Source: Spirogloea muscicola (Eukaryota). Taken from it: a stretch of DNA of 64,000 nucleotides. Both the position numbers and the translations under genes were made by a program. Positions 1,390 through 64,000 of this stretch are shown one piece after another. Location: NCBI GenBank assembly GCA_009602725.1, contig WELB01000016.1:869790-933789 (forward strand), written 5' to 3'. The notes under the pieces were generated by a model that did not search any database, was not told where the DNA came from, and was given only the letters and a program-made list of their open reading frames with translations. Numbering within the stretch: position 1 is the stretch's first letter; each line of letters starts with the position of its first letter.

Positions 1390-2465
1390 GGAGCCAGCAC
1401 CTCTTGTTCTGGTGAACTGGTGATCCAACAATCTTTTGTTGGTTCCACGGGTTCACTGGTTGAAAGGATTAGGGGTTGTAAGGGTTCTACAACATACGTT
1501 GCTCAAGAAGTAGGAGGTGGGCATCCACTTGGACTTTAGCCAAGTGCTTGCGCCAGCAAGGCCCGCACTGGTGGGTGTAATCGTCAAAGCATCTCATTGC
1601 AAAAGCCCTTAAAATCAAGCTATTGGTTGCAATAACGCTTTGCCGTGCACGTGCAGAAGCAGGCAAGCAAACTTGGAAACCTGCGCTACAGGGGCTACAA
1701 ACAAGTCACGCCAAACTGAGTTGCAAGTACAGTGTCCCTTGCTGCATGGGCCGCAGCACTCCCAGGCGGCTGCACTGGGAACCTCATGGCATGCTCGTTG
1801 CAAAAAACTCGACAACCTCAAGCAGCCCATGTATTCAAGAACCTAACTATAGATGCAAACAGCAAGTGCAAGCAGAGGGAGCACGGAATCAAGATGACCT
1901 GCATCTCTCTTGTTATCAAATGACTTTGAAAGCATTGCAAGACTGTAAAGCATCGCTGTAGTTAGCTGATTTTGAATGCATATACAGGTACTCACAAATA
2001 TCAGCAATACCAACAACCTCCAAATTATGGCGCTTTTGACATCATGCATGAGACATGATGCAACAAGGATTGTCTTGAGAAAAGATCAGCTGATACAGCA
2101 AGATATGCCACTTAGCAGATCACCACACTGATGTGGGCAGCATGCTTGAGGTCCAGAGGTGTTTTGATTGTTATAGCGGGCTAGGAGATGGAGCGACTAG
2201 ATAGCCAGAGCAATCGCTGTAAGGTCTTTGATCTGCTGGCATGTTATCCACTGTCACATTGATACATTGGAGCTGATGTCAACGATTTCCGCTGTTGCTC
2301 CTGCAGGGAAGCTAGTGAGGAAATTGCCACTCAAGTCCAGGACGGATAATGAGGTCAAGTTGCCAATGACAGCCGGGACAGGCCCGCTCAGCTTGTTGTC
2401 ATTGAGATAAAGATTATATAAGCTGACGCAGCCCACAAAAGACTCTGGGAGGGCCCCACTCAGGA
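1390..2465. repeat. Segmental duplication, paired with 62935-64000 (3' end and downstream flank of copies A and E)
   Basis: Near-identical coding and non-coding sequence, e.g. CAGCACCTCTTGTTC...GGGCCCCACTCAG at both loci. Confidence 0.92.
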
Positions 2466-5400: not shown

Positions 5401-8260
5401 GCGGTTGCAGAACTGCACCCACTGTGGCAGCAAAATACAGCATTTGCGATGTCAATAGGTGGCCCCTAGTGATTAGCCACACTACAGAAGATTTGGCACA
5501 GATTGTTCTGACAATGTCTGACAGCGCTGACAGCCCGAAACCCCCGTCACTGTTTGAAGTAACACTTGAGCAGCTCTTGACCACCAACCTGTGAAATCAG
5601 CTTACTGTGAAAGCAAGAGAGAGGCCTAGACTGGATGCCAATTACCAGGAGGTGGTGGGCCAAATGCCTGGCAGTGACCGCTGCTGCAGTCCTCGCCAAT
5701 GACAATGTCAATTATTGTATTGGGTGGCGGCTTGCCCACAAAGAAATTGTCTTCGTAGTTGAATAGCTGCAAGAGCAGAGCAATTGTCTTAAGCTCAGCA
5801 CGCGACACGGGGAAGAAGCACCAAGGCAAGAAGCAGCAGCCGCACTGGGCATGCTCTTTGGCATACCAGCCGAGGAACATACAGTGATGACTAGCCCCAA
5901 GCAGCTCGCCCCATGTTGCTAGGTCCAAGGAGAGTTAGTGTTGGTGAACCTGCAACTTTGGCTTTCCTGGCAAAAGGGCAAAAAAGTGGGAGATGTACCT
6001 GCAGATTGGGTAAGGAGAACACCCCCGGTGATGTTGCCTGCAAAGCGGTTGCCCGAAATGTCCAGCTGGAGGCCACGCTGCGAGTCCCCGTCAGAGCTCT
6101 TCAGGGCAGAATAATAGCAATGAGGAACACAACAAGTTGGGCAGTCACCTGGACGAGGCTTGTGAGATTGCCAATGTTGAGGGGGAGGCCGCCGTTGAGA
6201 CGGTTGTCAGCGAAGTTGAGTACAAGCGTGGAGCGGAGCTGGGTGATGGCAGTGGGGAGGCCACCAATGAGGCCGTTGTCGAGCAGTACGAGCTCTGACA
6301 ACGTCGGCGCGAGCTGCCCAATGCTGGCGGGAATCAGCCCGCCGAGCGCGTTGTGGGCGAGAACGGCGAGCGAGACCGGGAGGGAGCCCAGATTGTTCGG
6401 AATTGGCTCCTTGAGGGCATTGTTGTTCACTGCGAGCACGTCCAACCGCGTGCTGAATAGCGATGGTGGAAGCACGCCTGTGCAGCTGTTGTGGCGCAGG
6501 TCCAGGAAACGCAGGGCAGGCAGTGCTGTGACCCACAGCGGCAGCGGGCCCGACAGCAGGTTGAGCGAGAAGTCAATCTCGGCGAGCAGACTCAGTACGC
6601 TTAGATCTGGCAGTGCGCCGACGAAGAAGTTCTGGCTTGCATGAATGAAGCCCAGGTCCTGCGCACAATGGTCAACCAGAGGAGCCATAAGACCCACATG
6701 GACATGTTCAGAGATTGATACAGCAGTCAATGTCCTTTTCTTGCATCCCCTCACCCCTCTCCCCTCCAGCCATCTTCTCTTTTTGTCCCTTCTGCCCTTT
6801 CTGCGCTGCCCTCATCCTCCGGTCGTTCTGATGGAGATTGAGGTCTTGCAAGCCGCCAGGTCACACCAACAAGCTCGACCTTGCCAGGCTGTGAAGTCTC
6901 TGCAAGGCACTGTTCATTCACGCAGCAGCAGAGTTGCGGTTTCGCATGCTGAGAGGAGAGCTCCCGGTGCTCACTGGGAGGTTGCGCAGGTACTGTGGAA
7001 CGTAGCCATGAAGGCCAAAGCCGTTGAGGTCCAGGCCAGTGACGACCATCTGAGGCTGCGCCGCCACAGCCCTGACTGCCAGCGTGGCCCCAAATGCTGA
7101 GGCCTCTTCTGGGAGGCTGGCGGCGGCCACAGCCTGGTCCTCACAGTAGACGCCATTCCAACTTGAGGAGGTGGTGGCAATGACTGCCGCTTGGGTGAAG
7201 GAGGCCTGCTCGATGGTGGAGGCGACTGCGGCTTCTTCGGTGGCGCCCTCCCTGTAGGGGGTGGCATCTGCGGCGGCTGCAGCGGCACCACGGTACTGAG
7301 CCGTATCAGTGTCGGCAATCTTCTGATATTTTTCACTGCAGCAGGCCCTATTAGGTGCAGGCCCAACTTCTGCAGACAAAGCCCAAGCTCTCAAAATGCT
7401 CACAGGGCTGCAGCAAGCAGAGCGGGCACCCCTCACCAAGCAGCGGATGTGGTGGTGGCCAGGGTGGTGATTGCAGCTGTGCCGCGGTCTGCCATCGTGC
7501 TTCGTGCTGCCCGGCTTTTTCTTCGACTTATTCTTAGATTTCTTTGTCTTCTGTTTTGTCTTTGACGTCTTCGCCTCCACTCTCAAGTGTCGCCGCTCAC
7601 CGCCATTACCGGCGCCGTGGGCTTGGTCGACGCCAAGCAGCACCTTAAAGAGGCCCTGAGAGGTGGCACTGACGGCGAATGACAGCGTGGCGCTGCAAGC
7701 CGACTGCGAGCAGATGGATGGCGCTGTCGAGGCGCACGCCACTGGGACCAGGCCGGCGTGGGCCTTACCGGCCTCTGGCACCACATGAGCACAGCGGCCC
7801 ATTGCCCTTGCTGCTGCTGCGGCTGCCTGCTGCAGCTCGTCCTGCTGCCACCATCTCAGTGGCCGCACTGCATGCCAACCACCACAGTCTTCAGCAGTGG
7901 GATCGTTCCTTTGCGGCGCAAGCCACAGCCCCAGGAGCGTTGCCAGCCGGCCACCACGTCGCTGTGCATGCAGACGAGGTAGGGCGTCAATGGTGGCACC
8001 AATGGTGCCGACGACGGCGGGGCAAGAGGTCTAGCGACAGCAGGTCGCGGCGGGAATAGGGAGACCTGGCACTCCGCCTCGGCCTGCTCGAAGGAGGCCT
8101 GGCCCAGTGCCGCCAGCAGACACGCCCCAGAGCGCTGCCCCGGCGCGAAACCCGGCAGGCAGGCGCCGTCGCCAGGCGAAGTTGCCGTCCGGGCGCCATC
8201 CGCCATTGCGGCCGACAGAGTCAAGAGCACCGCCGTTGCCGCCGCCGCCGTGACAGCCAT
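2171..8260 (-). pseudogene. Copy A: lectin-LRR-extensin multi-LRR gene, pseudogenised
   Basis: Colinear with copy D: signal peptide at ATG 8260, LRX-type LRR exon ~6150-6660, Pro block 4320-5420, distal LRR modules 2171-4300. Lesions versus D/E: ~355-nt deletion at ~7930 removing most of the lectin domain, 316-nt deletion at ~7168, 5-nt deletion ~6027, 1-nt deletions ~5185 and ~2265, GAG>TAG stop at 4008-4010. Confidence 0.85.
2320..2900 (-). repeat. 291-bp (4-LRR, 97-aa) tandem duplication inside the last LRR module of copy A
   Basis: CTCAAGTCCAGGACGGATAAT starts at 2330 and again at 2621. Peptide GSIPAFVTSRLLLL...LDLSGNFL occurs twice in ORF 2254..2955. Confidence 0.9.
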
Positions 8261-34308: not shown

Positions 34309-34829
34309 CGTGGGCATGAGGACGCCCGGGTGAGAAAGCGCACACTGAGGTGGTACCGCGCGGCTCTATACACAGCACCTAGACCTAGATCATACGAGCT
34401 AGCACAAAGAGAGTTCCCGTCAGACTCTCTATACTCAACACCCACACAGGGCATGGAATACGCCCGCAGGCTCACCTATGTATAGGCTGTCGGCTGGACC
34501 GACGCTTTACATTTACAACTATGTCATGGTTTGTCCTGACTCTTACCGGATAATTTTCGTGTATTTGAAACAAACGAAGGCCAAATGGTCAAGTACAAAG
34601 GCAAGCACATCTTAAGACCTACATAACCTACGGTAGAGTGACCCGCTCAGTAACCACGGGTCAAAACATAAAGATTGCTAACCGGAGGGGCGTGCCCGCT
34701 ACAATAGCCAGTGTGGGAAGCAGCGGCCAGCTCGAGGGGGGGGAGGGGGGGCGCGCGGAGGCGAATCCAGGGACGATTGGCGTTGACCGCTTGCTACCGT
34801 ACGGAGGCCGTACGGCGGCCGAACGGCCC

Positions 34830-37800
34830 CCCCGGTCCGGCGGTNCTTGCCTGGCGGCGGTGCGCGGCCCGGCGACGTTCGCGCAGGCCGACGCCGAGTG
34901 CCAGGTCCGGCAGCGAGCTCGGAGTCTCGGCTTTGAGGGCTCGGGCTCGACTCCTGCCGGCGCCTGTCGAGGCGGCGGCCCGTCTCGGCGCGGCCGTCTC
35001 AGAGCTGTGGCCACCTTCCGGGGCTCATAGCTTCCGCCGCAATGCTGCCAAGGGCGTCGCCGCGCCGTGGCCGCCAATGCCGCCACTGGCGCAGCCGTCT
35101 CCGGCGTCGCCGCTGACGGTACGCCCTCGTCTGTGCGGCAGCGCCACGGCGGCCGCCTGGCGACGCTCCCGGGCCGGGCGGCGCTCGAGGACGCAGCGGC
35201 GCTGTGCCGGGCACGGTGACGGTGACGGTGGCGGCGCCGGCGGGTGCCTCCTGGGCGCCACTCGAGCTTCAGCTCCAGTTGCGCAGCTCTGCGCACCTCC
35301 ATGGTGTGGCGGCGGCCTGCAGAGCTCGCGCTGTTATCCCAAGCTTGTATTGCTGAGGACCCACAATGGCTCCTGCTTGAGCCACAGGGCCGCCATGGTT
35401 GTGGGCCGAGCGCTGCGCCGCCTTCTCGGCGGACCTGTGGCTGGCTGCGCCGCCGCCGTCGCCCGCCTTCGCAGCAGCCGGTGAGCTCTCTCTGTCCCCG
35501 ACCTGTGCCCCACCGGCCACGAGCTGGCCACTCTGTAGCTGGCCTCCACCGAGTGCTGCTGCCCTGGGCCGAAGTAGTAGTAAAAGTAAGAAGAAGCTGC
35601 AGAAATTGCAGCATGATTTCTGTGGTGCAACGGCACCAATAACATTTGTGTGCGACGGCATACGATTATGTAGTTTTGTGAGGGTGTTTGCCGAAGCCGC
35701 CGCTGCTACCGCGAAGGCCAGAATGGTGGTGGCTGACACGCAGCGGTGTCGCGGAGGTGGTGGCGGCAGGATGAGCTGCGGCTGGCAGCCGCCTCCATGG
35801 CAGCAGCAGCAAGCAGCTGCACTCGTGTGGTGCCACGGCCGGCGCGGGCCGCCCCGGCCTATCTCCAGCGGCATGCGACGCGGCGACGCTTTTCATCTGC
35901 TTGCAGGCAGCCTGCAGCGCTGCAGTGCCGACGTCACTCGTCGCCGCTTCTCAGGGGCTTCCTACAGAGCTGCCCGCCCGTGGCCACGCCCTCCGGGCCA
36001 GCCGTGCGAGTAAGCGATGGCAAATGGTGGAGTTCAAGAAGAAGAAGAAGAAAAAGTCAAGAAGAAGAAGAAGTCGAGCAGCTCAAAGCACGACGGAAGC
36101 CCGCAGCACAGCTGCAACCACCACCCCGGTCGTCACCACGTCCGCTGTTCGGTGAGGGGGCCCAACCTTGCTGCCAACTCCATGCCATGAAGTCACGAGC
36201 CCCCGGCCTGGCCAATGTGACCAGCTGCGGTGACTGAAATTGGACAAGATGCCAGGCACTGACATGGCTTGCCGCTTGGCGTGCTACTCCCAGCCGCTGC
36301 GGCCGCCACCGCCATCAAGGAGGCCGCCGTCACCCAAGTTGCGGATGCCGCCACCACCAAGGAGGTCACCGCCACCCAAGCGACAGCCGCCGCCCTCACC
36401 TCCCCGCCCGTCGCCTCCGCCCAAGCCACGCTCGCCGCCGAAACCACGCTCACCTCCGCCACCCAAGACACGCAGCCCCCCGCCGAGGGGGCGACGGCAA
36501 TCACCGCCGCCGAGGAGGCCGTCCCCCCCTCCACCAAGATGGACCTTCCCTCCTCCCCTGAAGAAAGCCTCCCCATCCCCTCCATGTATCAGCAAGCAGG
36601 CCCAGGCAGCGGGCTCGCTACTGGCCTTCAATGCCGCCGTGCGCGACCCCCGCGGCTACCTTGCCAACTGGGTTGGCGCCACACCATGCGCCTGCAGCTG
36701 GACTGGCGTCTTCTGTAAGGATCAGATGAGTGGCCGCTACAGGTGTCCCAGTGGAGGCCTTAGCATTTGGGGCCCACACCGGTGGTCAGAGCTGCGGTGG
36801 TGCGGACGCAGCTGGTCGTCACTGGCCTGGACCTCAACGGCTTTGGCCTGCGCGGCTACGTCCCGCGCTTCCTCCGCAATATCATGGTGTGAAATACTGA
36901 GAGCTACTTTCCGAGCAAGTGTAGTTCCCGGTCTGCAGAAGCCCCCAAAACCAATATCATTCGAGTGCTTGGTAGCCCGTCCAGCTATGATGTCTGCCAA
37001 AGTGGCCTAAGCTATCAGCACGATACAGCATTTGGAAAGGACAGACAGGAAGAGTGGAGGGAGGTTGAGGAGCAGGGAGAATTAGAGGCACCAAGCTAGG
37101 GGGGATGGGAGCAGAGGAGAGTAACAGAGGCTGGAGGGAGGGGGGAGAGAGATAGCTCGGCAGAAGAGGGAGGGAGAAAGACGAGGGAGAGAGGTTGGAG
37201 TGAGGCGTTCAAGCAGGGGTTGAGGTCGGAGGACAGGAAAACGGCAAAGTGAGTAGAGGGAGGGACGGTCCTGGTGATGTCAACCCGTGGTGCATGTTCA
37301 TGTGACCCTTACGCTGTCCATGCTGGCCGCCATGCGCAGGACTTCATCCATGCAAGCCAGAACTTCTTCATCGGCACGCTCCCAGACCTGAGCGCGCTCA
37401 CCTTGCTCACAGAGATCGACTTTTCGCTGAACATCCTCTCGGGTCCGCTGCCGCTGTGGGTGACCACGCTGCCGGCCCTGCGTTTTTTGGACCTACGATT
37501 CAACAGCTTCACTGGCACGCTGCCTCCGTCACTCTTTCGCACAAGCCAAGAAGTGCTCGCCGTCAATGACAACATCATGACGCAGCGGATCCCAGACAGC
37601 CTGTGACTGCTTCCTGTCTTGCTCACGGTCCTGGCCCGCAACATGCTCAGTGGCCCCATTTCTGCCAGCATCAGGCAACTTGCTCTGACGCTGTCGGAGC
37701 TCGTGCTGCTCAACAACGGCCTCGTTGGCGGTCTCCCCCTCCATTGGGCAGCTTCGTTTCACTGTGGTACTCAACATCGCTGGTAACCGCTTCGTCGGGA

Positions 37801-39310
37801 GTCTCCCCCCCAGCATCTCGAACCTCACAAGCCTTGTCCAGGTCAGACCAGTGGCTGACTGCCTGCAACCCATCTAGTAGTCACCCCCACCATGCACAGG
37901 TCTGATAGTAGTTCTGACAATACGTGTGGCGTTGGTTGTGTCTCGCCAGCTGGATATCTCGGACAACCGTTTTGCTGGCAACATCACCGCCTCAGCAGTA
38001 TTCTTCCTCCCCAATCTCCAGGTGCTGCTCTTGAATAGTGCAGTAAACCCAAGAAGTAGGAAGCCATCAGATGTGTGCATCTCACACAATTGCATACTGG
38101 CCTGGCCTGCTTCCGCTTAACTAGGGTCAACAAGTTGGGGAGCCTGACCTTTCTGTCATTGTTGAAGAGATGGGCCTGGTCAGTCGAGGTCAAGTGTAAT
38201 TGCTGCCTCCTTACAAGTGAAACTCGCGTGTCACGTAGTCAGCCCATATACTCTAAAAATCTTGCAGCTCTTCAACTACGCAGACAACTTCTTCGTCGGC
38301 AAGCCGCCGCCAAATACGACAGTGGATGTCATCATTGGCGAGTATTGCAGCAGTGGGCGCTTCCAGTCATTTGCCCCGCCGCCTCCTGGTGAGCAGTCTC
38401 GATCACAGGTCACAGAAGGTATGTTGGTGTGCAAGTGGCATAGGTGGCATTCTTGTGCTTGAATATTTCTGGGCGGGATCAGAGAACTTGATAGAGTTTG
38501 CTGAGCTGTTGCGTAAACCGCATGCGCCAGAGAATCAGGATGTATGTCGCACGGCAAGGAGTACCAGCTACAGCTCACTTTGCTGCCGTTTGGTGCCGCA
38601 GCAGGTGCGCTTCCGCCGCCACCGCCACCGTCGCCACCGCCTTCGCTACTGCCGTCACCGCGCAGTCAGCTCCAATACCATCGCCGCCTCCCACGGAATT
38701 GTTGCCGCCGCCAGCCCCAGCTTCACTGTCATCACCTCCTCCTGAATCGCCGCCGCTCACACTGCTGCCGCCAGGCCTACGTCCACCGCAGCCGCCGCCT
38801 ACGGCGGTGCCCACGCTCCTGCCGCCTCCCCCTTCGCCTCATTTGCCGGTCAGCGTCCCCTTGTCTCCACCGTCACTACCAGTCGCGAGCCCTCCGCCAC
38901 TGCTGCCGCCACCTCCATCGCCTCCACCCGGGGCTCCCGCCTTCCCGCCGCCGTCGCCACTGCCGCCGCCGCCGCCGCCGCCGCCAATTGTGGTGCCCAC
39001 GTTGCCACCACCTCCAGTGTCACTGCCACCTCCACCGCCTCCCCTGCTGCCGCCCTTACCACCGCCACCGCCGCCACCGCTGCCTGTTCTGCCACCACAA
39101 GTGCAGCCACCACTGCCACCGCCACCGCCATCGCCACCGCCTCTGCCGCCTTCACCACCTCCGCCACCACCGCTGCCCACTTACTTATAACTGCCACCGC
39201 CGCCACCACCAGCACCATCGCCGCCGCTTCCGTCACCACCGCCGCCCCCATTGTCCCCGCCGTCTCCTCCACCACCACCGTCGCCCCCACCATCCCCCCC
39301 GCCAGCGTCT
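34830..39310 (+). pseudogene. Copy B: divergent inverted lectin-LRR-extensin paralog, pseudogene
   Basis: Homologous exons: CLAAVRGPATFAQADAECQ, WLWAERCAAFSADLW, DFIHASQNFFIGTLPDLS, LFNYADNFFVGKPPP, Pro block 38600-39300. No signal peptide. Frameshifts at ~35835 and ~37740; stops at ~37605 and 39188. Confidence 0.82.
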
Positions 39311-42300
39311 GGAGGTGGCGGTGAAGGTGGCGGTGAGGGCGGCGGTGGTGAGGGCGGAGGCGGTGGTGAGGGCGGCGGTGGTGAGGGCGGCGGTGGTGAG
39401 GGCGGCGGTGGTGAGGGCGGCGGTGGTGAGGGTGGCGGTGGTGAGGGCGGCGGCGGTGGTGAGGGCGGCGGCGGTGAGGGCGGCGGTGGTGAGGGCGGCG
39501 GTGGTGAGGGCGGCGGTGGTGAGGGCGGCGGCGGTGGTGGCAGCGGCGGTGGTGGTGGCGGCGGTGGCGGTGATGGCGGCTGCGGTGGAGGCAGCGACGG
39601 TGGTGGTGGCGGCGGCGGCGGCAACGGAGGGGAGGGCGGCGGTGGTGAGGGCGGCGGCGGTGGTGGTGGCGGCGGTGGTGGTGGCGGCGGCGGCGGTGAT
39701 GGCGGCGGCGGTGGTGGCGGCGGAGGCGGCAACGGAGTGGAAGGAGGTGGTGGTGACGGTGGAGGGGGTGGCACCAAGAATGGTGGTGGCAACGGCGGCA
39801 GAGGAGGAGGCTGTGGTGGTGGCGGTGATGGTGGGGGAGGCGTTGGGGGAGGAAGCGCCACTGTGGGCGACGGCGGCGGAGGCGGCGATTGGGCCAGCGG
39901 GGGCGGGAATGGTGGTGAAAATGACGGAGGTGGCGGCGGCGGGAGCTCAGGCGGCGGCGGTGGTGGCGCCAATGATGGCAGCAAAGGCGGGCTGAGCTGC
40001 AACGGCGACGGCGACGGCGGCGGCGGCAGGAGAGATGGGGGTGGGGATAGCAGTGGAACTGGGGGTGGCGGTTGCAGAAGTGCACCCACTGTGGCAGCAA
40101 AGGACAGCATGTGAGATGTAAACAGGTTGCTCTAGTGGTCAGCCACGCTACGGCAGATTTGGCACAGTTTGATAATAACAACATATAAGAGCGTGACAGG
40201 CTTATCTCGAACCCCTTCAATCATCCGAAGTAACACTCTAGCAGCTCTTGACCGCCAATGTGTCATACTGTGGAAGCCATAGAGAGGCCTAGACTGGATG
40301 ACAATTACCAGGAGGTGGTGGTGGTGGTGGTGGTGGTGGTGGTGGTGGCGGTGGCGGCAGCAACGGAGGGGAAGACGGCGGAGGTGATGGTGGAGGGGTT
40401 GGCACCAAAGATTGAGGTGGCAGTGGTGGCTGCGGGGGAGACTGTTGTGGTGGTAGTGATTGTGGCGGTGATGGTGGGGGAGGCGTTGGAGGAGGAAGCA
40501 CGACTGGGGGCGACGGCGGCGGAGGTAACGATTGGGTTGGCGGGGGCGGGAATGGTGGCGAGAATGACAACGGTGGCGGCTGCGACAGAAGAGGTGGGGC
40601 TGTTGGAGGCGAAGGCGGAGAGGCCGGTGATGCTCCAATAAGAGGCGACGGAGGTGGAGGTAGGGCTGGTAGTGATGGCAGTGGCAGCAAAAGACAGCAT
40701 GTGAGAAGTCAACAGGTGGTCCGAGTGGTCAGCCACTCTACTGAAGATTTGGCACAGATTGCTTAACAACATCTATCAGCGCTTACAGCCTTATTTCATA
40801 TTTCAAAGCCCTGGAGAAAATTTCGAACAGCTCTTGAACACCAATGTGTACCTACTGTGAAAGCCATAGAGAGGCCTAGATGACAATTACCAGGAGGTGG
40901 TGGTGGCGGCGGCAGTGGTGGTGGTGGTGGTGGCGGCAACGGAGGGAAAGGTGGCGGTGGTGACGGAGGGGGTGGCACCAAGAATGGTGGTGGCAATGGT
41001 AGCTGCAGCGGAGGCTGTTGTGGTGGCGGCGATTGTGGCCCTGATGGTGGGGGAGGCGTTGGAGGAGGAAGCACCACTGGGGGCGACGGCGGCGGAGGCG
41101 ACAGTTGGGCTAGCGGGAGCGGGAATGGTGGCGTAAACGATGGTGGTGGCGGTGGCAGGGGAGGCGCTTGGGGAGGAGACGATGACGGAGGGGCCAGAAG
41201 TGGCGGTGAAGTTGATTGCGGCAGCGGGGATGACTGGGGCGGCGAACGGGGTGGAGAAAGCGACTCCGGAGGCAGCAATTCTGGTGCGGGTGGAGGCGGT
41301 GGGAAAGGTAGCACTGGGGGCGACGGCTGGGTCAGTGGTGGAGGGGATGGCGATGGACGTGGTGTCGGCGGGAGCTCAGGCGACGGCGGGAATGATGCCA
41401 ATGGCGGCAGCAAAGGCGGGCTGAGCTCCGGTGATGGCGACGGCGGCGGCGACAGTAGAGATGGGGCTGTCGGAGGCAAAGGCGGAGAGACAGGAGATCC
41501 TCTACTAAGGGGCGATGGTGGTGGAGGTAGGGCTGGTAGCGGTGGCAGTGGCGGCGGACTAGACGTAGGCGACAGTGGGGATGATGTTGTTGGCGTCAAC
41601 AATGGGGATGATGTTGTTGGCGAGGGTAATAGCAATGGCGCTCGTGGAGAGAACGATGGAGGTGGAGGTGGCAATAGCAGCGGCACTGGGGGTGGCGGTT
41701 GCAGTAGTCCACTCACTGTGGCAGCAAAAGACAGCATGTGAGATGTGGTCGGCCACTCCACTAAAAACTTGGAACAGACTATATTTACAACAACTTACAG
41801 AGCTGACAACCCTATTTGAAACCCCTTCAATCATCCGAAGTAACACTTCGAGCAGCTCTTGACCATCAACCTGTACCTACTGTGAAAGCAATAGAGAGGC
41901 CTAGACTGGATGCCAATTTACCAGGAGGTGGTGGGCCAAACGCCTTGCAGTGACCGCTGCTGCAATCCTGGCCAATGATAATGTCAATGGTTGAATTGGG
42001 CGGCGGCTTGCCCACAAAAAAGTTGTCCTTATAGTTGAATAGCTGCAAGATAGAAGATATTTCCTTAAGCTCAGCACGCGACATGAGGAAGGAGCACCAA
42101 GTCAGCAGCCGCACTTGGCATGATCTTTGGCCATACCAACCAAGGAACATAAATGACCAGCCCTAAGCAGCTCGCCTCATGTTGCTAGGTCTGGGGAGAG
42201 ATAGTGTTGGTCCATCTGCAAACTTGGAATTCTTGGCAGAAGGCAACATGAGTGGTAGCTGTACCTGCAGATTGGGCAAGAAGAACACCTCCGAGGTGCT

Positions 42301-45178
42301 GATGTTACCTGTAAAGCGGTTGCTCGAAATGTCCAGCTGCAGGCCACGCTGCGAGTCCCATCAGAGCTGTTCAGGGCAAGAATGATAGCAACAAGTGTCG
42401 CAACAAGTCGGCCATTAACCTGGACGAGGCTTGTGAGATTGCCAATGTTGAGGGGGAGGCCGCCGTTGAGGCGGTTGTCGGCAAAGTTGAGTACAAGCGT
42501 GGAGCGGAGCTGGGTGATGGCAGCGGGGAGGCCGCCGATGAGGCCGTTATCAAGCAGCACAAGCTCCGACAACGTCGGCGCGAGCTGCCCAATGCTGGCG
42601 GGAATCAGCCCGCCGAGCGCGTTGTGGGCGAGAACGGCGAGCGAGACCGGGAGGGACCCCAGATTGTTCGGGATTGGCTCCTTGAGGGCATTGTTGTTCA
42701 CCGCGAGCACGTCCAGCCTCGTGCTGAATAGCGACGGTGGAAGCACGCCTGTGAAGCTATTGTGGCGCAGGTCCAGGAAACGCAGGGCAGGCAGTGCCGT
42801 GACCCACAGCGGCAGCGGGCCCGACAGGAGGTTGAGCGAGAAGTCAATCTCAGCAAGCAGACTCAGTCCGCTTAGATCTGGCAGTGCGCCGACGAAGAAG
42901 TTCTGGCTTGCATGAATGAAGCCCAGGTCCTGCGCACATTGGTCAACCAGAGGAGCCATATGAGCCACATGGACATGTCCGGAGATGGACACAGCTGACA
43001 ATGTCCTTGTCTTGCATGCCCCCACCACTCTCCCCTCCAGCCGTCTTCAGTGTCTGTCCCTTCCTGCCCTGCCCTTATCCTCCGGTCGTTCTGGTAGCGA
43101 TTGAGGTCTTGCAAGCCGCCAAGTCACACCAACAAGCTCGAGCTTGCAGGCTGTCTCAAGGCAAGGCACTGCTCATCCACGCTGCAGCAGAGTTGTGGTT
43201 ATGCATGCTGAGAGGAGAGCTCCTGGTGCTCACCGGGAGGTTGCGCAGGAACTGCGGAACGTAGCCATGAAGGCCAAAGCCGTTGAGGTCCAGGCCAGTG
43301 ACGACCACCTGAGGCTGCACCGCCACAGCTCTGACTGCCAGTCTGGCCCCAAATGCTGAAGCCTCTGCCGGGAGGCTGGCGGCGGCCACAGCCTGGTCCT
43401 CACAGAAGACGCCTTTCCAATTTGAGGCGCATGGTGTGGTGCCGATCCAGTTGGTGAGGTGGTCGTGTGGGTCGCGCATAGCGGCCTTGAACGCCAGTAG
43501 CAACACCCCCACCTGGGCCTGCTTACTGATAGAGGGAGGAGGGGGGACGGCCGTTCTAGGAGGAGGTGTGGAGGCCTTCACTGGCAGAGGACGGAAAGGC
43601 TTCTTCGGTGATGGCGGTGGCGCCGTCGGCCTCCAAGGGGGCCTGTGCGTCTTGGGCCGAGGCGGTTGTAGCTTGAGCAATGGAGGCGAGTGTCGCTTTG
43701 GAGGAGGCGAGCGGCGAGGAGGTGGTGGCATTGACAAACGCTTGGGTGAAAGAGGCCTGCTTGATGGTGGAGGCGACTGCGGCTTCTTCGCCGACGCCAT
43801 ACCTGTAGGGGGTGGCATCTGCGGCGGCTGCAGCGGCACCACAGTATGGAGCAGTATCAGTGTCGGCAATCTTCTGATATTCATTCCTGCAGCAGGCCCT
43901 ATCGTGTGCAGGCCCAGACTCTACAGACAAAGCTCAAGTTCCCACAAGCTCCCGGGGCTGCAACAAGCAGAGCGGGCACCCCTCACCAGGCAGCGGACGT
44001 GGTGGTGGCCAGGGTGGTGATTGCAGCTGTGCCGCGGTCTTCCATCGTGCTTCGTGGCGCTCGGCTTTTTCTTCGACTTCTTCTTGGTTTTCTTGGTCTT
44101 TTTTTTTGTCTTTGATGTCTTTGACTCCACTCTCAAGTGCCGCCGCTCACCACCACCACCGGTTCCATGGGCGTGGCCAATGCCAAGCGGCACCTTAAAT
44201 AGGCCCTGAGAGGAGGCACTGACGGCCAATGACAGCGTGGCGCTGCAAGCCGACTGCGAGCAGATGAATGGCGCTGTCGAGGCACACGCCACTGGGACCA
44301 GGCCGGCGTGGGCCTTACCGGCCTCTGGCACCACATGAGCACAGCGGCCTACTGCCTTTGCTGCTGCTGCGGCTGCCTGCTGCAGCTCGTCCTGCCGCCA
44401 CCATCTCAATGGCCGCACTGCATGCCAAACACCACAGATTTCAGCTGTGGGATCGTTCCCCTGCGGCGCAAGCCAAAGCTCGGGAGCGAGTGGGCGCCAG
44501 GTTGGGTGCAGAGGAGCTCACCAGTCGCCGAGGGAGAGGCTGCCGACGGCGTCGTGGTGGCCAGCCACAGGTCCGTGGAGAAGGCCGCGCAGGGCTCCGT
44601 CCATTTCCATGGCGTCCCTCCTGCCGAAGGGAAACCGCGGAGGCGTGCGTCTTGACGCAAGCGGCAGGTACCGGATCGGACGACACTGCAGCACGAGCTG
44701 ACGGGAGTTGCATACTGGTATGCAGGGAGCTGCGCACCTGGCTCTGGCACACGCGTGGCACCCACGAAGCACCCGCCACTCCCACCATCGCCAGTGCCGC
44801 TGGGTAGTGCACGGCACAGCTCAACGGCGTCCTCGAGCGCCAAGCGCCCCAGGAGCGTTGCCAGCCGGCCGCCACGTCGCTGTGCATGCAGACGAGGCAG
44901 GGCGTCAACGGTGGCACCAATGGTGGCGACGACGGCAGGGCAAGAGCTCTAGCGACAGCAGGTCGCGGCGGGAATAGGGAGACCTGGCACTCCGCCTCGG
45001 CCTGGCCGAATGACGCCGGGCCGGGCGCCGCCAGCAGGCACGCCCCGGAGCGGGGCCCCGGCGCGAAGCCCGGCAGGCAGGCGCCATCCCCAGGCGAAGC
45101 CGCCTTCCGGGCGCCGTCCGCCATTGCGGCCGACAGAATCAAGAGCACAGCAGCCGCCGCGGCCACCGTGACCGCCAT
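39181..45178 (-). CDS. Copy C: secreted C-type-lectin/LRR/extensin protein lacking the distal LRR modules
   Basis: ATG 45178 with signal peptide; lectin, Lys-rich, LRRNT and LRX-type LRR exons are open with GT-AG introns; three Pro-rich exon copies. The first stop (39181) is reached only after reading into the antisense strand of copy B. Confidence 0.6.
39320..39530 (-). repeat. 15-bp repeat encoding (SPPPP)n extensin pentapeptides
   Basis: (GGCGGTGGTGAGGGC)n on the plus strand, roughly 13 units. Confidence 0.9.
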
Positions 45179-51800: not shown

Positions 51801-52061
51801 TGGATGGCCAGGACTGGGGAGGTGGTGCTGGCAGGGATACATATGGCTGTCGAGCTTGCAGGCGGCCTGCGCAAGCGTGCTGTATACATCGATGCCCATG
51901 TCAGCCCCGACGTGCTACACATCAAGCATATGCGCGGCCTCATCTCCAGGAATGGTACCTGTGACACAATTGTGACAGACCTACGGACAACGGCCCGGTC
52001 TGTGCTGGATACTGACATGCTCGTATATACCCAGCTTCCGAGCCCCATTATCAAAGTGTAA
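48857..52061 (+). CDS. Glycosyltransferase family 92 (DUF23), GALS-like galactosyltransferase; multi-exon, start uncertain, possible premature stop
   Basis: Exon peptides VHVGAYRTGPDEFNVTG (~49370-49445), YEALIIGCKF...GGQLYL (~50365-50460), YSYCGPP...RVADWLRYH (~50980-51136) and YYHGQQVYLDDCIHR...WTLFCDLDEYLY (~51407-52061) follow the motif order of plant GALS proteins as recalled. Confidence 0.78.
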
Positions 52062-55335: not shown

Positions 55336-58300
55336 CTACGCCGGGCCGGGAGGTGGGGTGTTGAAATAACTGAAGCATTCACTGTACGACCTCTGGTCTG
55401 CTGGCATGTTGTCCACCGTCACATTGATGCAGTTGGAATAGATGTAGGCGACGCTCCTCGTTCTGGCTCCGGATGGGAAGCTGGTAAAGTAGTTGTTTTC
55501 CAGGCCAAGGAAAGTCACGTTGGGCAGAGATGCAAAGCCCAGAGGCACATCACCTGTCAGCTCGTTCGCAGCTAGGTCCACAGTCACCAGGCTGATGAGC
55601 TGCCCATACGAGGGGGGAATGACGCCCGTCAGGACGTTGCCATCCACTGAGATATACTGCAGGAGTGGCAGGGTTGCCCAACCGTCGGGCAGTGATCCTG
55701 ACAGTTGGTTGTTGGAGAGGTCCAAGACTGTCAAGAGTGTCATATTAGTGATCGAGGCTGGCATCGCACCCTCAAGCAGATTGTTGCTCAGAGTGAGGGT
55801 GGTGAGGAGAGATAGGCTGCCAATGTCAGCTGGGATGGCCCCGCCAAACTCGTTGAAGTACAGGTTGAGCCCTCCGAGGGAGGTGAGTGATGTCAAGGAC
55901 GATGGGAGGGTAGGGAATACGCCCGTTGGAGGCGATCCTACTGAGATGCTGAGAAACGTGACACGGTCGTGCTTGTCACACAGGACACCAGCCCAACTGC
56001 AGGTGCCAGTGAGACAGCCATCACAAGGTGCGGTGGAATTCCAGCTATCCAGGAGAGTTGGGTTGCCCAGCGTGGCCTTGAGGTCGAGCAGCGGCGTAGC
56101 CGAGCTTGCCGGCAGTGTGGCGCGTGCAAAGAATTGTATGCACTCTGCGTATGACCGCTGGTTAGACCGATCTGCAAATGCAGTCAAATCTCCCAGGCAA
56201 TTGTCGTAGATCAAAGGGTACGTCGTGGATATGAGGAGGGGACCAGTCAAGTAGTTACTGTCGAGATTTATGTAAATGGGGAAGTCCGGGGCTAAGAGGG
56301 CGTCTGGAATTTGGCCCGTGAATTCGTTGTCATTCATATAGACATAGGTGTAATTGCCAAAGGCGGCAACGAATGCGGGCACCGGCCCACTGAGGACGTT
56401 GCTGGCAACACTGAGCGATGACAAGCTGATGCAGCCCGTCAGCGTGGCAGGAAGGGCCCCGGTAAGCAGGTTGTCACTCACGTCCAGGTTGCTGAGCAAG
56501 TCGAGGTTGCCAACGTCTGCCGGGATAGGCCCTGTCAGCTGGTTGCTGTTGAGATAGAGGCTGGTGAGGAGGAGCAGCGTGGATGTGACAAATGCTGGAA
56601 TGGGGCCTTGAAGGCTGCTGTCCTCCAGATAGAGCTGCTGCAGGGTCGTGAAATTCGCCAACGTCATTGGAAATGGGCGACCACCGGCATTGTATAGAGA
56701 GGACAGATCAAGAGTTGTGACGTGCCCAAAGCTGTCACAACCAAGCCCTGTGAGGATGCAGCCATAGGGGCAGCCAGCGCAGGGGTCAACGGCGTTGCTT
56801 GAATACCAATTCAATTGAAATGGATTACCAAGCTCAACCTTGAGTTCGAGGAGGCTGACTGTGGATGTCGGCGGGAGCGCTGCGAGCTCATAGAAGGCAA
56901 AGCAATCTTGCCAATCGCGTTGTCCGGGAATAGACACGCCCTTGCTCACCCCGAAGCAGTTGTATGTGTCAGGGCTGAATTGAGTGGCTGCACCCGTAAA
57001 GTAATTTGAGTAGATATTCAGCTCTCGTAGCCCCGGCTGGAGGACAACAAGGTCGCCAGAGAAAAGGTTCTCGCTGACGTCGAGCTCAATCAGCGATTGG
57101 AGACCGAGGACGACTTGGATGTCGCCAGATAACCAGTTACGGGATAAGTCGAGGTTGCTAAGGAGCGGCAGTGAGCCCAATGTTGTAGGAATGGGCCCCT
57201 GCAGCGGGCCCTCGTATGCCAATGACAGGGTTGTCAGCTCCTTCAAATTCCCCAGAGACGCTGGGATCTCGCCTGTGAAATCGTTCCATCCCAGGTCCCT
57301 AGCCACAGGCAAAGCTTGGCAGGTATCAGCAACTCTGAAGCGGCTTCTAATCACAGACAACTGACTTGACATGGCAACCATTTGCACCAATTAAGTATAT
57401 GCCATGGCCCGTCGACCAATGTCATCCCTTCATGACTCGACTATGGTGAGAGGAAGTACCGGCCCAAGCCATACCTCGTTGGCTTTTGACTGAATGCCTT
57501 AACTGAATCTATGCTGAATCAACATGCAACAATGCTGCCCACAGCCCTAAGCCTGGGACCCTCCTCACGAACCTGAACACTCAATCCTATGATCAAGCCC
57601 TGAGTGCTGAGGTGCGAGGAAGGATCGAAAGATCGGCAATTCCTCAGCCGTATGCCCGCCCGTTGACTAAGGTGAGAGCCTCACAAGATTTGCAGATTGG
57701 TGAGATTGCCGAGCTCCGAAGGGATGGGGCCAAACAAGCCGATGAAGGGCAGCGTTAGCTGCTGAAGGCTGGCGAGGCTGCCAAGGCTGGCCGGCATGTT
57801 CCCAAGGTAACGATAACCAGTATTCTCAAGGTTGATCCTGATCACAGAGCCTTGGTCATCGCAAGTCACTCCAGACCATGCACATGATGCCTCCGTGCCA
57901 GGAATGCAGCCGTCGCAGGGGTTGGACGTATTCCAGGTGGCGACTTGCTCTGACGTACCGATGAGCACCGCCTTGAGCTCCAGAAGGATTGCCAGTTGGT
58001 CGAGCAAAGGGCCGGGTGTACTCGGCGGTGGGGGAGGCGCTGGCGGCGGTAAGACTGGTGGGGATGGCGGCGGCGGTGGTGGTGGTGGCGGGGGCTGTGG
58101 TGGCGGCGGCAGCAGCAACGGAGGGGACGGCGGCGGTGGTGACGTTGGAGGGGGTGGCACCATGAATGGCGGTGGCAATGGTGGCTGCGGAGGAGGCTCT
58201 TGTGGTGGCGGTGATAGGGGGGGAGGCGTTGGAGGAGCAAGCATCGCTGGGGGCGACGGCGGCGGAGGCGACGACTGGGCTAGCGGGGGTGGGAACGGTG

Positions 58301-61300
58301 GCGAGATTGACGATGGTGGCGGTGGCGGCAGGGGAGGAGATGGGGGAGGAGGTGGTGACCGAGGGGCCAAAAGCGAGGTTGGAACTGGGGGCGGTGTTGG
58401 GGATAAATGGGGCGGCGGAGAGGGCGGAGAAAGCGACTCTGCAGGCGGCACTTTTGGTGCCGGTGGAGACGGTGGGAAAGGTATCACTGGGGGCGACGGC
58501 TGGTTCAGTGGTGGCGGGGATAGTGGGGAGAGTGGCGGCGGATGTAGCGTCGGCGGGAGCTCAGGTGGCGGTAGTGGCGGTGCCAATGGCGGCAGCAATG
58601 GCGGGCTGAGCTTCAGCGACGGCGACGGCGGCGGCGACAGTTGAGATGGGGCTGTTGGAGGCAAAGGTGGAGAGGCCGGTGATGCTCCAGTAAGAGGCGG
58701 CGGTGGTGGAGGTAGGGCTGGTAGCGATGGCAGTGGCGGCGGACTGGACGGGGGCGGCAACAGTGGGGATGATGTTGTTGGCGAGGGTGGTATCGATGGC
58801 ACTTGTGGAGAGAGCAACGGAGGTGGAGGTGGGGATAGCAGCGGAACTGGGGTTGGCGGTTGCAGAACTGCACCCACTGTGGCAGCAAAATACGCATTTG
58901 CGATGTCAACAGGTGGGCCCTAGTGATTAGCCACACTACTGAAGATATGGCACAGATTGTTCTGACAATATCTGACAGCGCTGACAGCCCGTACCCCCGT
59001 CACTATTTGAAGTAACACTTGAGCAGCTCTTGACCACCAACCTGTGAAGTCAGCTTACTGTGAAAGCAAGAGAGAGGCCTAGACTGGATGCCAATTACCA
59101 GGAGGTGGTGGGCCAAATGCCTGGCAGTGACCGCTGCTGCAATCCTCGCCAATGACAATGTCGATTGTTGTATTGGGTGGCGGCTTGCCCACAAAGAAAT
59201 TGTCTTCATAGCTGAATAGCTGCAAGAGCAGAGCAATTGCCTTGAGCACGCGACACGAGGAAGAAGCACCAAGGCAAGAAGCAGCAGCCGCACTGGGCAT
59301 GCTCTTTGGCATACCAGCCGAGGAACATACACTGATGACTAGCCCCAAGCAGCTCGCCCCATGTTGCTAGGTCCAAGGAGAGTTAGTGTTGGTCAACCTG
59401 CAACTTTGTCTTTCTTGGCAGAAGGGCACATAAGTGGGAGATGTACCTGCAGATTGGGTAAGAAGAACACCCCCGAGGTGGTGATGTTGCCTGCGAAGCG
59501 GTTGCCCGCAATGTCCAGCTGGAGGCCACGCTGCGAGTCCCCGTCAGCTCTGTTCAGGGCAGAATAACAGCAACGAGGAAAACAACAAGTTGGCCAGTCA
59601 CCTGGACGAGGCTTGTGAGATTGCCGATGTTGAGGGGGAGGCCGCCGTTGAGACGGTTGTCAGCGAAGTTGAGTACAAGCGTGGAGCGGAGCTGGGTGAT
59701 GGTTTCGGGGAGGCCACCAATGAGGCCGTTGTCGAGCAGCACAAGCTCCGACAACGTTGACGCGAGCTGCCCAATGCTGGCGGGAATCAGCCCGCCGAGC
59801 GCGTTGTGGGCGAGAACGGCGAGGGAGACGGGGAGGGAGCCCAGATTCATCGGAATTGGCTCCTTGAGGGCATTGTTGTTCACTGCAAGCACGTCCAACC
59901 GCGTGCTGAATAGCGATGGTGGAAGCACACCTGTGAAGCTGTTGTGGCGCAGGTCCAGGAAACGCAGGGCAGGCAGTGCTGTGACCCACAGCGGCAGCGG
60001 GCCCGACAGGAGGTTGAGCGAGAAGTCAATCTCAGCGAGCAGACTCAGTCCGCTTAGATCTGGCAGTGCGCCGACGAAGAAGTTCTGGCTTGCATGAATG
60101 AAGCCCAGGTCCTGCTCACAATGGTCGACCAGAGGAGCCATAAGACCCACATGGACATGTTCAGAGATTGATACAGCTGTCAATGTCCTTTTCTTGCATG
60201 CCCTCACCCCTCTCCCCTCCATCCATCTTCACTTTTTGTCCCTTCTGCCCTTTCTGCGCTGCCCTCATCCTCCGGTCGTTCTGATGGAGGTCTTGCAAGC
60301 CGCCAGGTCACACCAACAAGCTCGACCTTGCCAGGCTGTGAAGTCTCTGCAAGGCACTGCTCATTCACGCAGCAGCAGAGTTGCGGTTTTGCATGCTGAG
60401 AGGAGAGCTCCCGGTGCTCACCGGGAGGTTGCGCAGGAACTGCGGAACGTAGCCATGAAGGCCAAAGCCGTTGAGGTCCAGGCCAGTGACGACCATCTGA
60501 GGCTGTGCCGCCACAGCCCTGACTGCCAGTGTGGCCCCAAATGCTGAGGCCTCTGCTGGGAGGCTGGCGGCGGCCACAGCCTGGTCCTCACAGTAGACGC
60601 CATTCCAACTTGAGGCGCATGGTGTGGTGCCAATCCAGTTGGTGAGGTAGCCGTGGGGGTCGCGCATAGCGGCTTTGAAGGCCAGTAGCGACACCCCCGC
60701 CTGGGCCTGCTTACTCACAGAGGGAGGAGGGGGGTTGGCCTTTCTAGGAGGGGGTGTGGAGGGCTTCAGTGGCAGAGGACGGAAAGGCTTCTTCGGTGAT
60801 GGCGGTGGCGCCGGCGCCCTCGGTGGGGACCTGTGCGTCTTGGGCGGAGGCGAGTGTGGCTTGAGCAATGGAGGCGGTTGTAGCTTGAGCCATGGAGGCG
60901 AGTGTCGTTTGGGAGGAGGCGAGCGGCGAGGAGGTGGTGGCAATGACTGCCGCTTGGGTGAAGGAGGCCTGCTTGATGGTGGAGGCGCCTGCGGCTTCTT
61001 CGGTGGCGCCCTCCCTGTAGGGGGTGGCATCTGCGGCGGCTGCAGCGGCACCACGGGATTGAGCCGTATCAGTGTCGGCAATCTTCTGATATTATTTCCT
61101 GCAGCAGGCCCTATTGTGTGCAGGCCCAACTTCTGCAGACAAAGCCCAAGCTCTCAAAATGCTCGCAGGGCTGCAGCAAGCAGAGCGGGCACCCCTCACC
61201 AAGCAGCGGATGTGGTGGTGGCCAGGGTGGTGATTGCAGCTGTGCCGCGGTCTGCCATCGTGCTTCGTGCCGCCCAGCTTTTTCTTCGACTTCTTCTTAG

Positions 61301-62378
61301 TTTTCTTTGTCTTCTTCTTTGTCTTTGTCGTCTTCGCCTCCACTCTCAAGTGCCGCCGCTCACCGCCACTACTGGCGCCGTGGGCTTGGCCGACGCCAAG
61401 CAGCACCTTCAAGAGGCCCTGAGAGGTGGCACTGACGGCGAATGACAGCGTGGCGCTGCAAGCCGACTGCGAGCAGATGGATGGCGCTGTCGAGGCGCAC
61501 GCCACTGGGACCAGGCCGGCGTGGGCCTTACCGGCCTCTGGCACCACATGAGCACAACGTCCCATTGCCTTTGCTGCTGCTGCGGCTGCCTGCTGCAGCT
61601 CGTCCTGCTGCCACCATCTCAGTGGCCGCACTGCATGCCAGCCACCACAGTTTTCAGCAGTGGGATCGTTCCTTTGCGGCGCAAGCCACAGCGCGGGAGC
61701 GAGTGGGCGCCAGGTTGGGTGCAGTGGAGCTCACCAGCTGCCGAGGGAGAGGCTGCCGACGGCGTCGTAGTTGCCAGCCACAGGTCCGTGGAGAAGGCCG
61801 CGCAGGGCTCCGTCCACCTCCATGGCGGGCCTGCGCAGGGGGCGCCCGTCTTGACGAAAGCGGTACATAACCACTTGGGCCTTTCTGCAGCACGAGCTGA
61901 TGGGAGTTGCTCTGGTATACCGAGAGCTGCGCACCTGGCTCTGGCCCACGGGTGGCGCCCACAAGGCAGCCGCTGCTGCTCCCACCATCGCCAGCGCCGC
62001 CGGGTAACGCTCGACACAGCTCCGCCGCGTCCGCGAGCGCCGAGCGCCCCAGGAGCGTCGCCAGCCGGCCACCACGTCGCTGTGCATGCAGACGAGGCTG
62101 GGCGTCAATGGTGGCACCAATGGTGGCGACGACGGCGAGGCAGGAGCTCGAGCGACAGCAGGTCGCGGCGGGAATAGGGAGACCTGGCACTCCGCCTCGG
62201 CCTGGCCGAATGACGCCGGGCCGGGCGCCGCCAGCAGGCACGCCCCGGAGCGGGGCCCCGGCGCGAAGCCCGGCAGGCAGGCGCCGCCCCCAGGCGAAGC
62301 CGCGTCCCGGGCGCCGTCCGCCATTGCGGCCGACAGAGTCAAGAGCACAGCAGCCGCCGCCGCCGCCGTGACCGCCAT
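55336..62378 (-). CDS. Copy D: apparently intact ~1,800-aa secreted protein (signal peptide, C-type lectin-like domain, Lys/Pro-rich linker, LRX-type LRR, extensin-like block, three further LRRNT-LRR-Cys-cap modules)
   Basis: About 10 exons with GT-AG introns: 62378-62184, 62079-~61935, ~61830-61734, ~61629-61200, ~61130-60422, ~60110-59603, ~59519-59448, ~59219-59099, 58877-~57685, ~57298-55336. No stop seen in the exons; no C-terminal TM helix. Confidence 0.82.
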
Positions 62379-62900: not shown

Positions 62901-63706
62901 CCCCACGATCAGCATCAATGCTCCTAAGGGTGGGAGTCAGCACCTCTTGTTCGGGTGACTTGGTGATCCAACAATCTTTTGTTGATTTCAAGGGTTCACT
63001 GGTTGAAAGGATCAGGGGTTGTAAAGGTTCTACAACATACGTTGCTCAAGAAGTAGGAGGTAGGCATCCACTTGGACTTTAGCTAGGTGCTTGCGCCAGC
63101 AAGGCCCGCACTGGTGGGTGTAATCATCAAAGCATCTCATTGCAAAAGCCCTTAAAATCAAGCGATTGATTGCAATGACGCTTTGCCGTGCGCGTGCAGA
63201 AGCAGGCAAGCAAACTTGGAAACCTGCGCTACAGGGGCTACAAACAAGTCACGCCAAACTGAGCTGCAAGTACAGTGTCCCTTGCTGCATGTGCGGCAGC
63301 ACTCCCAGGCAGCTGCACTGAGAACCTCATGGCATGCTCATTGCAAATAACTCGACAACCTCAATCAGCCCATGTAGTCAAGAACCTGACTACAGATGCA
63401 AACAGCAAGTGCAAGCAGAGGAAGCAAGGAATCCAAATGACCTGCATCTCTCTTATTATCAAATGACTTTGAAAGCATTGCAAGATCGTAAAGCATTGCT
63501 GTAGTTAGCTGATTTTGAATGCATATACAGGTACTCACAAATGTCAACAGTACCAACAACCTCCATTTAGGGCGCTTTTGACATCATGCATGAGACATGA
63601 TGCAACAAGGATTGTCTTGAGAGCTGATAGAGCAAGATATGCCACTTAGCAGATCACCACACTGATGTGGGCAGCATGCTTGAGGTCCAGAGGTGTTTTA
63701 GTTATA

Positions 63707-64000
63707 TTATAGCCGGCTAGGAGATGGAGCGACTACATAGCCAGAGCAATCGCTATACGGTCTTTGATCTGCTGGCATGTTATCCACTGTCACATTGATA
63801 TAATTGAAGCTGATGTCAACGATTACCGCTGTTGCTACTGCAGGGAAGCTGGTGAGGAAGTTGTCACTCAATTCCAGGATGTATAATGAGGTCAAGTAGG
63901 CAATGACAGCCGGGACAGGCCCGCTCAGCTGGTTGTCATCGAGATAAAGATAATTTAAGCTGACGCAGCCCACAAAAGAGTCTGGGAGGGCCCCACTCAG
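63707..64000 (-). CDS. Copy E: 3' end of another paralog continuing beyond the window
   Basis: Open frame ...CVSLNYLYLDDNQLSG...DQRPYSDCSGYVVAPSPSRL*, homologous to the end of copy A. Confidence 0.8.
   Translation of the reverse strand: MSGALPDSFVGCVSLNYLYLDDNQLSGPVPAVIAYLTSLYILELSDNFLTSFPAVATAVIVDISFNYINVTVDNMPADQRPYSDCSGYVVAPSPSRL

Follow-up and report, generated by a model that had tools for sequence, protein, structure and literature searches.

Lamprey VLRs combine capped LRR modules and a variable concave face with somatic assembly from cassettes, unlike the algal family described here, in which each copy is a germline gene. LRX proteins (e.g., LRX2, LRX8) carry a dimer cysteine (C138 in LRX2) and a disulfide ladder joining LRR7-11 to a Cys-rich tail, as described in the available part of bioRxiv 10.1101/695874. 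LRXs were not found in four algae, including Klebsormidium, according to the accessible text of PMC4769139, and the portions available of PMC8462819 and PMC12069490 hold nothing further on algal LRXs. PGIP clusters contain pseudogenes, evolve by birth and death and vary at xxLxLxx (partial text of PMC4115169), while hvNLRs and RLPs vary on the concave beta-sheet, with recombination and conversion among clustered paralogs (partial text of PMC8226289). In Closterium, the accessible sections of PMC5736609 describe CpRLP1 as having 10 LRRs and a TM segment; set by description only against copy D of the present family, it is likewise a zygnematophyte extracellular LRR protein, but D has no TM segment.

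Self-comparison of the window, by which we mean the whole 64,000-nt stretch of DNA analysed, revealed five related copies, A, B, C, D and the 3' end of E (Table 1). Gene models of these loci are already public: copies A and C correspond to P0125 and P0123, and P0126 is a fusion of E and D, its N-terminal half representing the remainder of E. The accessions P0121, P0001, P0122 and P0124 are from Spirogloea muscicola, and the family is therefore zygnematophyte. P0001 (70% identity) is the sole close relative of the last exon of copy D among 7984 scored candidates, and the LRRNT exon matched five proteins among 1172 candidates. A search of 50% clusters gave P0126, P0001 and P0125 as the close matches among those listed; the remaining 147 in the list are long proteins with many LRRs (33-53% identity, mainly over short stretches), and the three of these that were fetched have bacterial-looking content. 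The cap-linker search returned two relatives among 261 candidates, both from Spirogloea, which hints weakly that the family may be confined to this lineage. Between copies A and B lie Ty3/gypsy-like gag and protease/RT fragments (15384-16346 and 28285-29655, both minus strand), and between C and D a plus-strand ORF (51378-52058) matches glycosyltransferase family 92 (E=7.6e-11). A long SPPPP-repeat ORF (39184-40131) past the stalk of copy C, overlapping the 3' end of copy B on the opposite strand, is possibly an additional Pro exon of copy C.

Table 1. Positions of the five copies and of the parts of copy D within the 64,000-nt window.
Feature	Position	Strand	Description
Copy A	2173..8260	-	Broken paralog: M2, partial M3 with 291-nt tandem duplication, M4-type terminal cap
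Copy B	~34700..39190	+	Older, inverted, degenerate lectin-like + LRX copy, stops present
Copy C	40893..45178	-	Lectin-like + LRX + Pro stalk, without distal cassettes
Copy D, whole gene	55336..62378	-	Predicted 10 exons, 1780 aa, no internal stop
Copy D, exons 1-5	62378-62184, 62079-61935, 61830-61735, 61630-61200, 61039-60422	-	
Copy D, exons 6-10	60111-59602, 59518-59447, 59219-59099, 58876-57685, 57298-55336	-	
D: N-terminal part	61200..62378	-	Signal-peptide-like N terminus, putative C-type-lectin-like domain (4 exons), Lys/His-rich segment
D: LRX-type part	59099..61039	-	Basic Pro-rich segment, LRRNT, LRX-type LRR M1 (~10 repeats), short Cys segment
D: stalk	58020..58876	-	Proline-rich; 285 aa, 53% Pro, 9 SP3+ motifs, no Tyr
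D: distal cassette M2	56886..58019	-	LRRNT, 7 LRRs, NC..QR...C cap; phase-2 intron 57684-57299 inside
D: distal cassette M3	56119..56885	-	LRRNT-like cap, 7 LRRs, Cys cap
D: distal cassette M4	55336..56118	-	LRRNT, 8 strands, Cys cap, then short Pro tail and stop
A-D similar tract	57900..62190 of D	-	~4.3 kb, 94-98% identical; older divergence on both sides
Copy E	62912..64000	-	Final 97 codons (63710-64000) and 3' flank, A-like

Copy D provides the reference model, in which each of nine introns predicted from the DNA is GT-AG and phase-consistent. P0126 agrees with it on lectin-like exons 2-4, on the exons of the LRX part and on the M2 intron; its reading of the proline-rich parts is different. 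In each of the three distal cassettes an N-cap and an NC..QR...C cap enclose the 7-8 strands. P0121, from another scaffold, has the identical domain order, although M3 of D has two repeats fewer, and P0001 spans M2-M4 and ends at the same residue as copy D. The stalk frame continues into the M2 cap (ORF 57684-58919), and the M1 region matches Pfam LRRNT_2 and LRR_1. The exon preceding the LRRNT (60422-61057) has two open frames for ~115 codons, one Pro/basic and one Ala/Thr-rich, and P0125 and P0126 read it in a frame other than that of the copy D model. By hydropathy alone, the N-terminal 19-mer of copy D is the top hydrophobic window (1.98); no membrane anchor was detected, internal 19-mers reaching at most 1.53 with the highest lying within LRR or helical segments, and the product is predicted to be secreted without a TM segment. 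A membrane receptor with an overlooked TM exon was also considered and ruled out, four copies stopping at the same cap.

The domain at the N terminus is less certain. Its cysteine pattern offers only a lead towards a C-type lectin-like domain: the ESM Atlas model scored 0.91 with the Lectin_C set in 27 of 30 matches, and REG4 was hit in PDB at E=0.06, but the Pfam search, PF00059 included, gave no match, and a single-sequence AF2 model of this part (pLDDT 38) was too low for use. Every copy joins this putative four-exon lectin-like domain, set behind a signal-peptide-like N terminus, to an LRX-type module (61200-62378, 43975-45178, 7437-8260 and ~34700-36000).

An LRX-type LRR core (59099-61039, P0122) occurs in a zygnematophyte alga. 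P0122 aligns with Arabidopsis LRX2 (6qxp) in one collinear stretch of 181.8 bits, the stretches of the four RLKs among the matches listed reaching at most 81 bits, and by a by-eye count 20 of 50 exposed residues are identical to LRX2. Like the LRXs (LRX2, LRX8), M1, which is collinear with the LRX2 core, keeps a conserved concave face and leads into a Cys segment and then an SP3+ proline-rich domain. In LRXs the core comes straight after the N terminus, whereas that of D begins ~400 aa in, behind lectin-like, Lys/His and basic segments, and the stalk of D has three further LRR cassettes beyond it. The nine SP3+ motifs are internal in D, A and E, terminal in copy C and without Tyr, unlike the C-terminal extensin domain of LRX. 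The dimer and ladder cysteines are also absent: V, L, G and F stand in P0122 where LRX2 has the four cysteines of the aligned repeats, the first of which was read from the alignment as C138, and the 170-aa LRR exon of copy D contains no Cys. By architecture as by cysteines, the protein falls outside the LRX family.

The distal half invites comparison with other systems. Like PGIPs, the family consists of capped plant LRR proteins that are secreted (here by prediction), lack TM and kinase, lie in a cluster that includes pseudogenes and vary at xxLxLxx; unlike the single 10-LRR domain of PGIPs, three cassettes of 7-8 strands are carried on an LRX module and stalk in a 1780-aa model. PGIP was absent from the 42 PDB matches at E<=1e-30 for the last exon of copy D. 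A variable concave face and recombination and conversion among clustered paralogs are shared with RLPs (Cf-9 type) and hvNLRs, but here there is no TM, island domain, NB-ARC or kinase, and the omega evidence is far weaker. Judged against the available portions of PMC4115169, PMC8226289 and PMC3138743, the family evolves like PGIP and hvNLR clusters and is a member of neither. With an alignment of three sequences as input, AF2 (pLDDT 73) puts beta-strands at the xLxL positions that define our site classes, and the M2-M4 model, when compared by Foldseek, matched generic plant LRR ectodomains (TM-score <=0.27) with no whole-domain match.

The preliminary description of this DNA contrasted a nearly frozen LRX module with hypervariable distal modules, and the counts behind it were reproduced: between A and D the LRX-type exon has 6 differing residues out of 170 aa and the next module (taken as codons 1-116 of the last exon) has 29 out of 113 aligned aa, and the motif pairs it quoted are present in the sequence. 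Changes between A and D are enriched, as claimed, at the exposed positions x2, x3, x5, x7 and x8 (28/53 vs 64/282-283 elsewhere; Fisher p=1.8e-5). The same pattern had been described between A and E with near-identical flanks; the pattern stands (9/15 exposed vs 6/78 other positions), but the flank is 94% identical (48 differences in 787) rather than near-identical. The synonymous distance of the A-E coding tail (0.078) is similar to that of the flank, so that the contrast is limited to exposed codons. Beyond these pairs, exposed sites of M2-M4 differ at 50-72% against 13-33% elsewhere in six of six comparisons involving P0121 and P0001, making the distal concave faces 2-5x more variable than the framework (p 1e-9 to 4e-4). 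Differences at exposed sites number 15/30 (P0121) and 21/30 (P0001) in M2, 25/35 and 21/35, respectively, in M3, and 24/40 in M4 of P0001, against 28/214 at its other positions (p=1.3e-9). Five variants of M2-M3 carry 2.55 residues per exposed site against 1.61 elsewhere (p=1.6e-9).

The LRX concave face, on the other hand, is conserved at every age tested, as the preliminary description had anticipated: 0/35 exposed sites differ from A, 0/35 differ from C at a distance of 0.19, and 9/34 differ from B at a neutral distance of 1.4, giving an omega of 0.11 (0.13 at other sites). The first seven M1 strands hold two substitutions across six proteins (one row was omitted, where the E model skips sequence), and the last two strands vary more. 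These substitution patterns demonstrate purifying selection on the M1 concave face, with an exposed-site omega of 0-0.11 across the comparisons. The class-by-module interaction (odds ratio 3.8 distal vs 0.97 LRX; p=0.01), taken with the conserved M1, indicates that the modules are under different regimes irrespective of age.

Age nevertheless accounts for part of the contrast. The preliminary description had named raised synonymous divergence in the distal modules as evidence against its reading, and for A and D this is largely what was found: synonymous distance rises ~4-fold, from 0.09 in the LRX exons to ~0.39 in the distal part (Fisher p=8e-10). Introns agree, with 0.19 distally against 0.03-0.09 for introns 1-4 in the LRX half. 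Exon by exon, neutral distances run 0.44, 0.04, 0.09, 0.05 and 0.39 for A-D and 0.04, 0.21, 0.12 and 0.19 for D-C; the LRX part of copy B lies ~1.1-1.4 from D. The similar tract shared by A and D probably reflects conversion or double crossover, and the distances mark the two copies as old duplicates whose middle appears to have been recently homogenised. Since A and D share this ~4.3-kb tract, their module contrast is in part one of age, and much of what was described as frozen versus variable is a mosaic of different ages.

Whether the exposed distal sites evolve faster than neutrality was assessed with a pairwise GY94 model, using 15-53 codons per test and nominal p values. For A-D, distal omega was 1.66 at exposed sites and 0.36 elsewhere (LRT against 1, p=0.029). 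For the A-E tail, which was singled out post hoc, it was 3.7 and 0.47 (p=0.021) from coding sequence alone and 5.1 at exposed sites with the flank as clock (p=4e-4), and 9/9 exposed differences were non-synonymous. The signal persists after removal of any one repeat (p 0.007-0.047), and framework omega is 0.09-0.36. The internal duplicate of copy A gave omega 1.8 (p=0.21, not significant). In a rough test on protein comparisons only, which assumes a framework omega of 0.25-0.36, nine of ten fit omega=1 at exposed sites, including A-E across M2-M3 (20/48 exposed; p=0.48-0.92); the lone excess over the rough neutral expectation was the D-P0001 comparison of M4 (p 3e-4 to 0.017). Intron 5 as a clock for A-D (omega ~2.2, p=3e-4) was set aside because introns here accumulate divergence at roughly half the synonymous rate. 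It should be noted that fourfold-degenerate sites within exposed codons differ at 6/9 against 29/137 elsewhere (p=0.006; 56452-57880 vs 2740-4180). Micro-conversion or multiple hits may lie behind this excess, which breaks the single-clock assumption and weakens the omega tests. Of the earlier proposal of diversifying selection there remain two pairs with omega>1 (p 0.02-0.03) and one of ten rough protein-only comparisons. A fair reading is that exposed distal sites evolve at the neutral rate or somewhat above, and the tests argue modestly for an excess over neutrality. Gene conversion and relaxed constraint, together with modest selection for new partners to bind, probably all contribute to the variation in the outer modules.

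With a probability of about 0.5, we suggest that the D-type protein is a wall-tethered binder, in which a conserved LRX-type module would be joined to three outer cassettes that, much like PGIPs, bind a changing set of foreign proteins. The secreted protein would be held in the wall through its hydroxyproline-glycosylated stalk, which may serve as both anchor and spacer between domains. M1 would retain one unchanging endogenous ligand, comparable to RALF for LRX, and wall-degrading enzymes or elicitors from microbes would be bound by M2-M4 and then neutralised or presented, signalling of their own not being proposed because there is no membrane anchor or kinase. Conversion would keep the constant half uniform, and the outer half would be diversified by point mutation, repeat duplication and cassette loss in a process of birth and death. 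Turnover would be supplied by tandem duplication, conversion, the 291-nt unit of A, the two missing repeats of D and pseudogenisation, with cassette loss proposed for copies C, A and E. The 291-nt unit is a tandem duplication of four LRRs (2316-2895; 92% identical), found in E too according to P0126. The secreted constant-plus-variable repertoire of the preliminary description is retained in so far as the product is predicted to be secreted, its LRX face is constant and its distal faces are variable; copies A and B, however, are broken.

Exposed LRR positions are the structurally least constrained class, and the distal variation might accordingly reflect relaxed constraint combined with a mosaic of ages: the outer cassettes would need only to fold, as a spacer or wall scaffold, with buried and capping residues retained, exposed residues drifting neutrally and conversion giving the LRX half its frozen look. 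The ~4-fold older distal dS and intron, the patchwork of distances among copies and the agreement of nine of ten protein-only tests with neutrality all fit this explanation, which stays a live rival since just one of the ten exceeds neutrality. Against it stand omega >1 in both DNA-level pairs and in M4 of P0001, and the conservation of LRX exposed sites at equal or greater age, which implies that the module contrast does not come from age alone; on balance we hold this explanation to be possible, if rather unlikely. Variable exposed faces are likewise predicted if the cassettes are mating or self/non-self surfaces in conjugation, kept diverse by frequency-dependent selection, and CpRLP1, an LRR receptor-like protein, acts in Closterium conjugation (available text of PMC5736609). 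CpRLP1, however, is a single 589-aa protein with a TM segment that D does not have, and the diversity here lies among paralogs of one genome, many of them broken, a pattern more in keeping with birth and death than with a mating locus; we therefore regard a mating role as improbable.

The broken copies number at least two. In copy A the frame is interrupted by a stop (4010-4008) and shifted near 6025, 3093 and 2262, and two stretches (~355 and 312-316 nt) are deleted. Exact contigs bridge its stop in DNA runs X1, X2 and X4 and the 3093 frameshift in all four runs, so that assembly error was rejected for both, and joints matching both deletions are present in the DNA runs, which are perhaps from the source sample; the 2262 break was left out of the count, having only 27 letters on one side. 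Copy E may be broken too, as the public model skips parts of it; its 3' flank passes straight into the upstream region of D. Copy C has no frameshift in its first eight exons. That the copies are decaying duplicated fragments in a retrotransposon-rich region, with the LRX-to-M2 fusion not one protein and the variation now functionless, would suit the broken A and B, the suspect E, the Ty3/gypsy gag and pol fragments between copies and the inconsistent reading of Pro regions by public models, but is very unlikely given that D is open across 1780 codons with nine canonical phase-matched introns, that a framework omega of 0.09-0.36 denotes purifying selection, and that P0121 has the same layout and P0001 the same end residue.

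A literature search of titles and abstracts, with most subscription journals outside its coverage, returned no description of this architecture. The domain combination and the LRX-type core in this alga appear to be undescribed, while the evolutionary pattern itself is already known, being textbook for PGIP and NLR clusters. If relaxed constraint is the true explanation, the locus represents a domain shuffle specific to this lineage and serves as a warning that gene conversion can inflate constant-versus-variable contrasts in tandem paralogs. In its broadest form, which we consider doubtful, the repertoire reading has the algal sister lineage of land plants building, on an LRX wall-sensing module, an extracellular constant-plus-variable recognition repertoire encoded in the germline. 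In this picture conversion keeps the lectin-like head and frozen LRX core uniform, and these carry interchangeable cassettes under arms-race selection. If it is true, microbial recognition and wall-integrity sensing would be coupled with no receptor kinase involved, and the LRX fold would predate both land plants and its own disulfide dimer. The presence in this alga of an LRX-type module whose concave face is conserved but whose dimer Cys is missing bears on the timing of LRX wall sensing. Extracellular immunity in zygnematophytes is little known, and LRX-anchored diversifying cassettes would, if the repertoire reading holds, be a concrete candidate for pathogen recognition that predates land plants.
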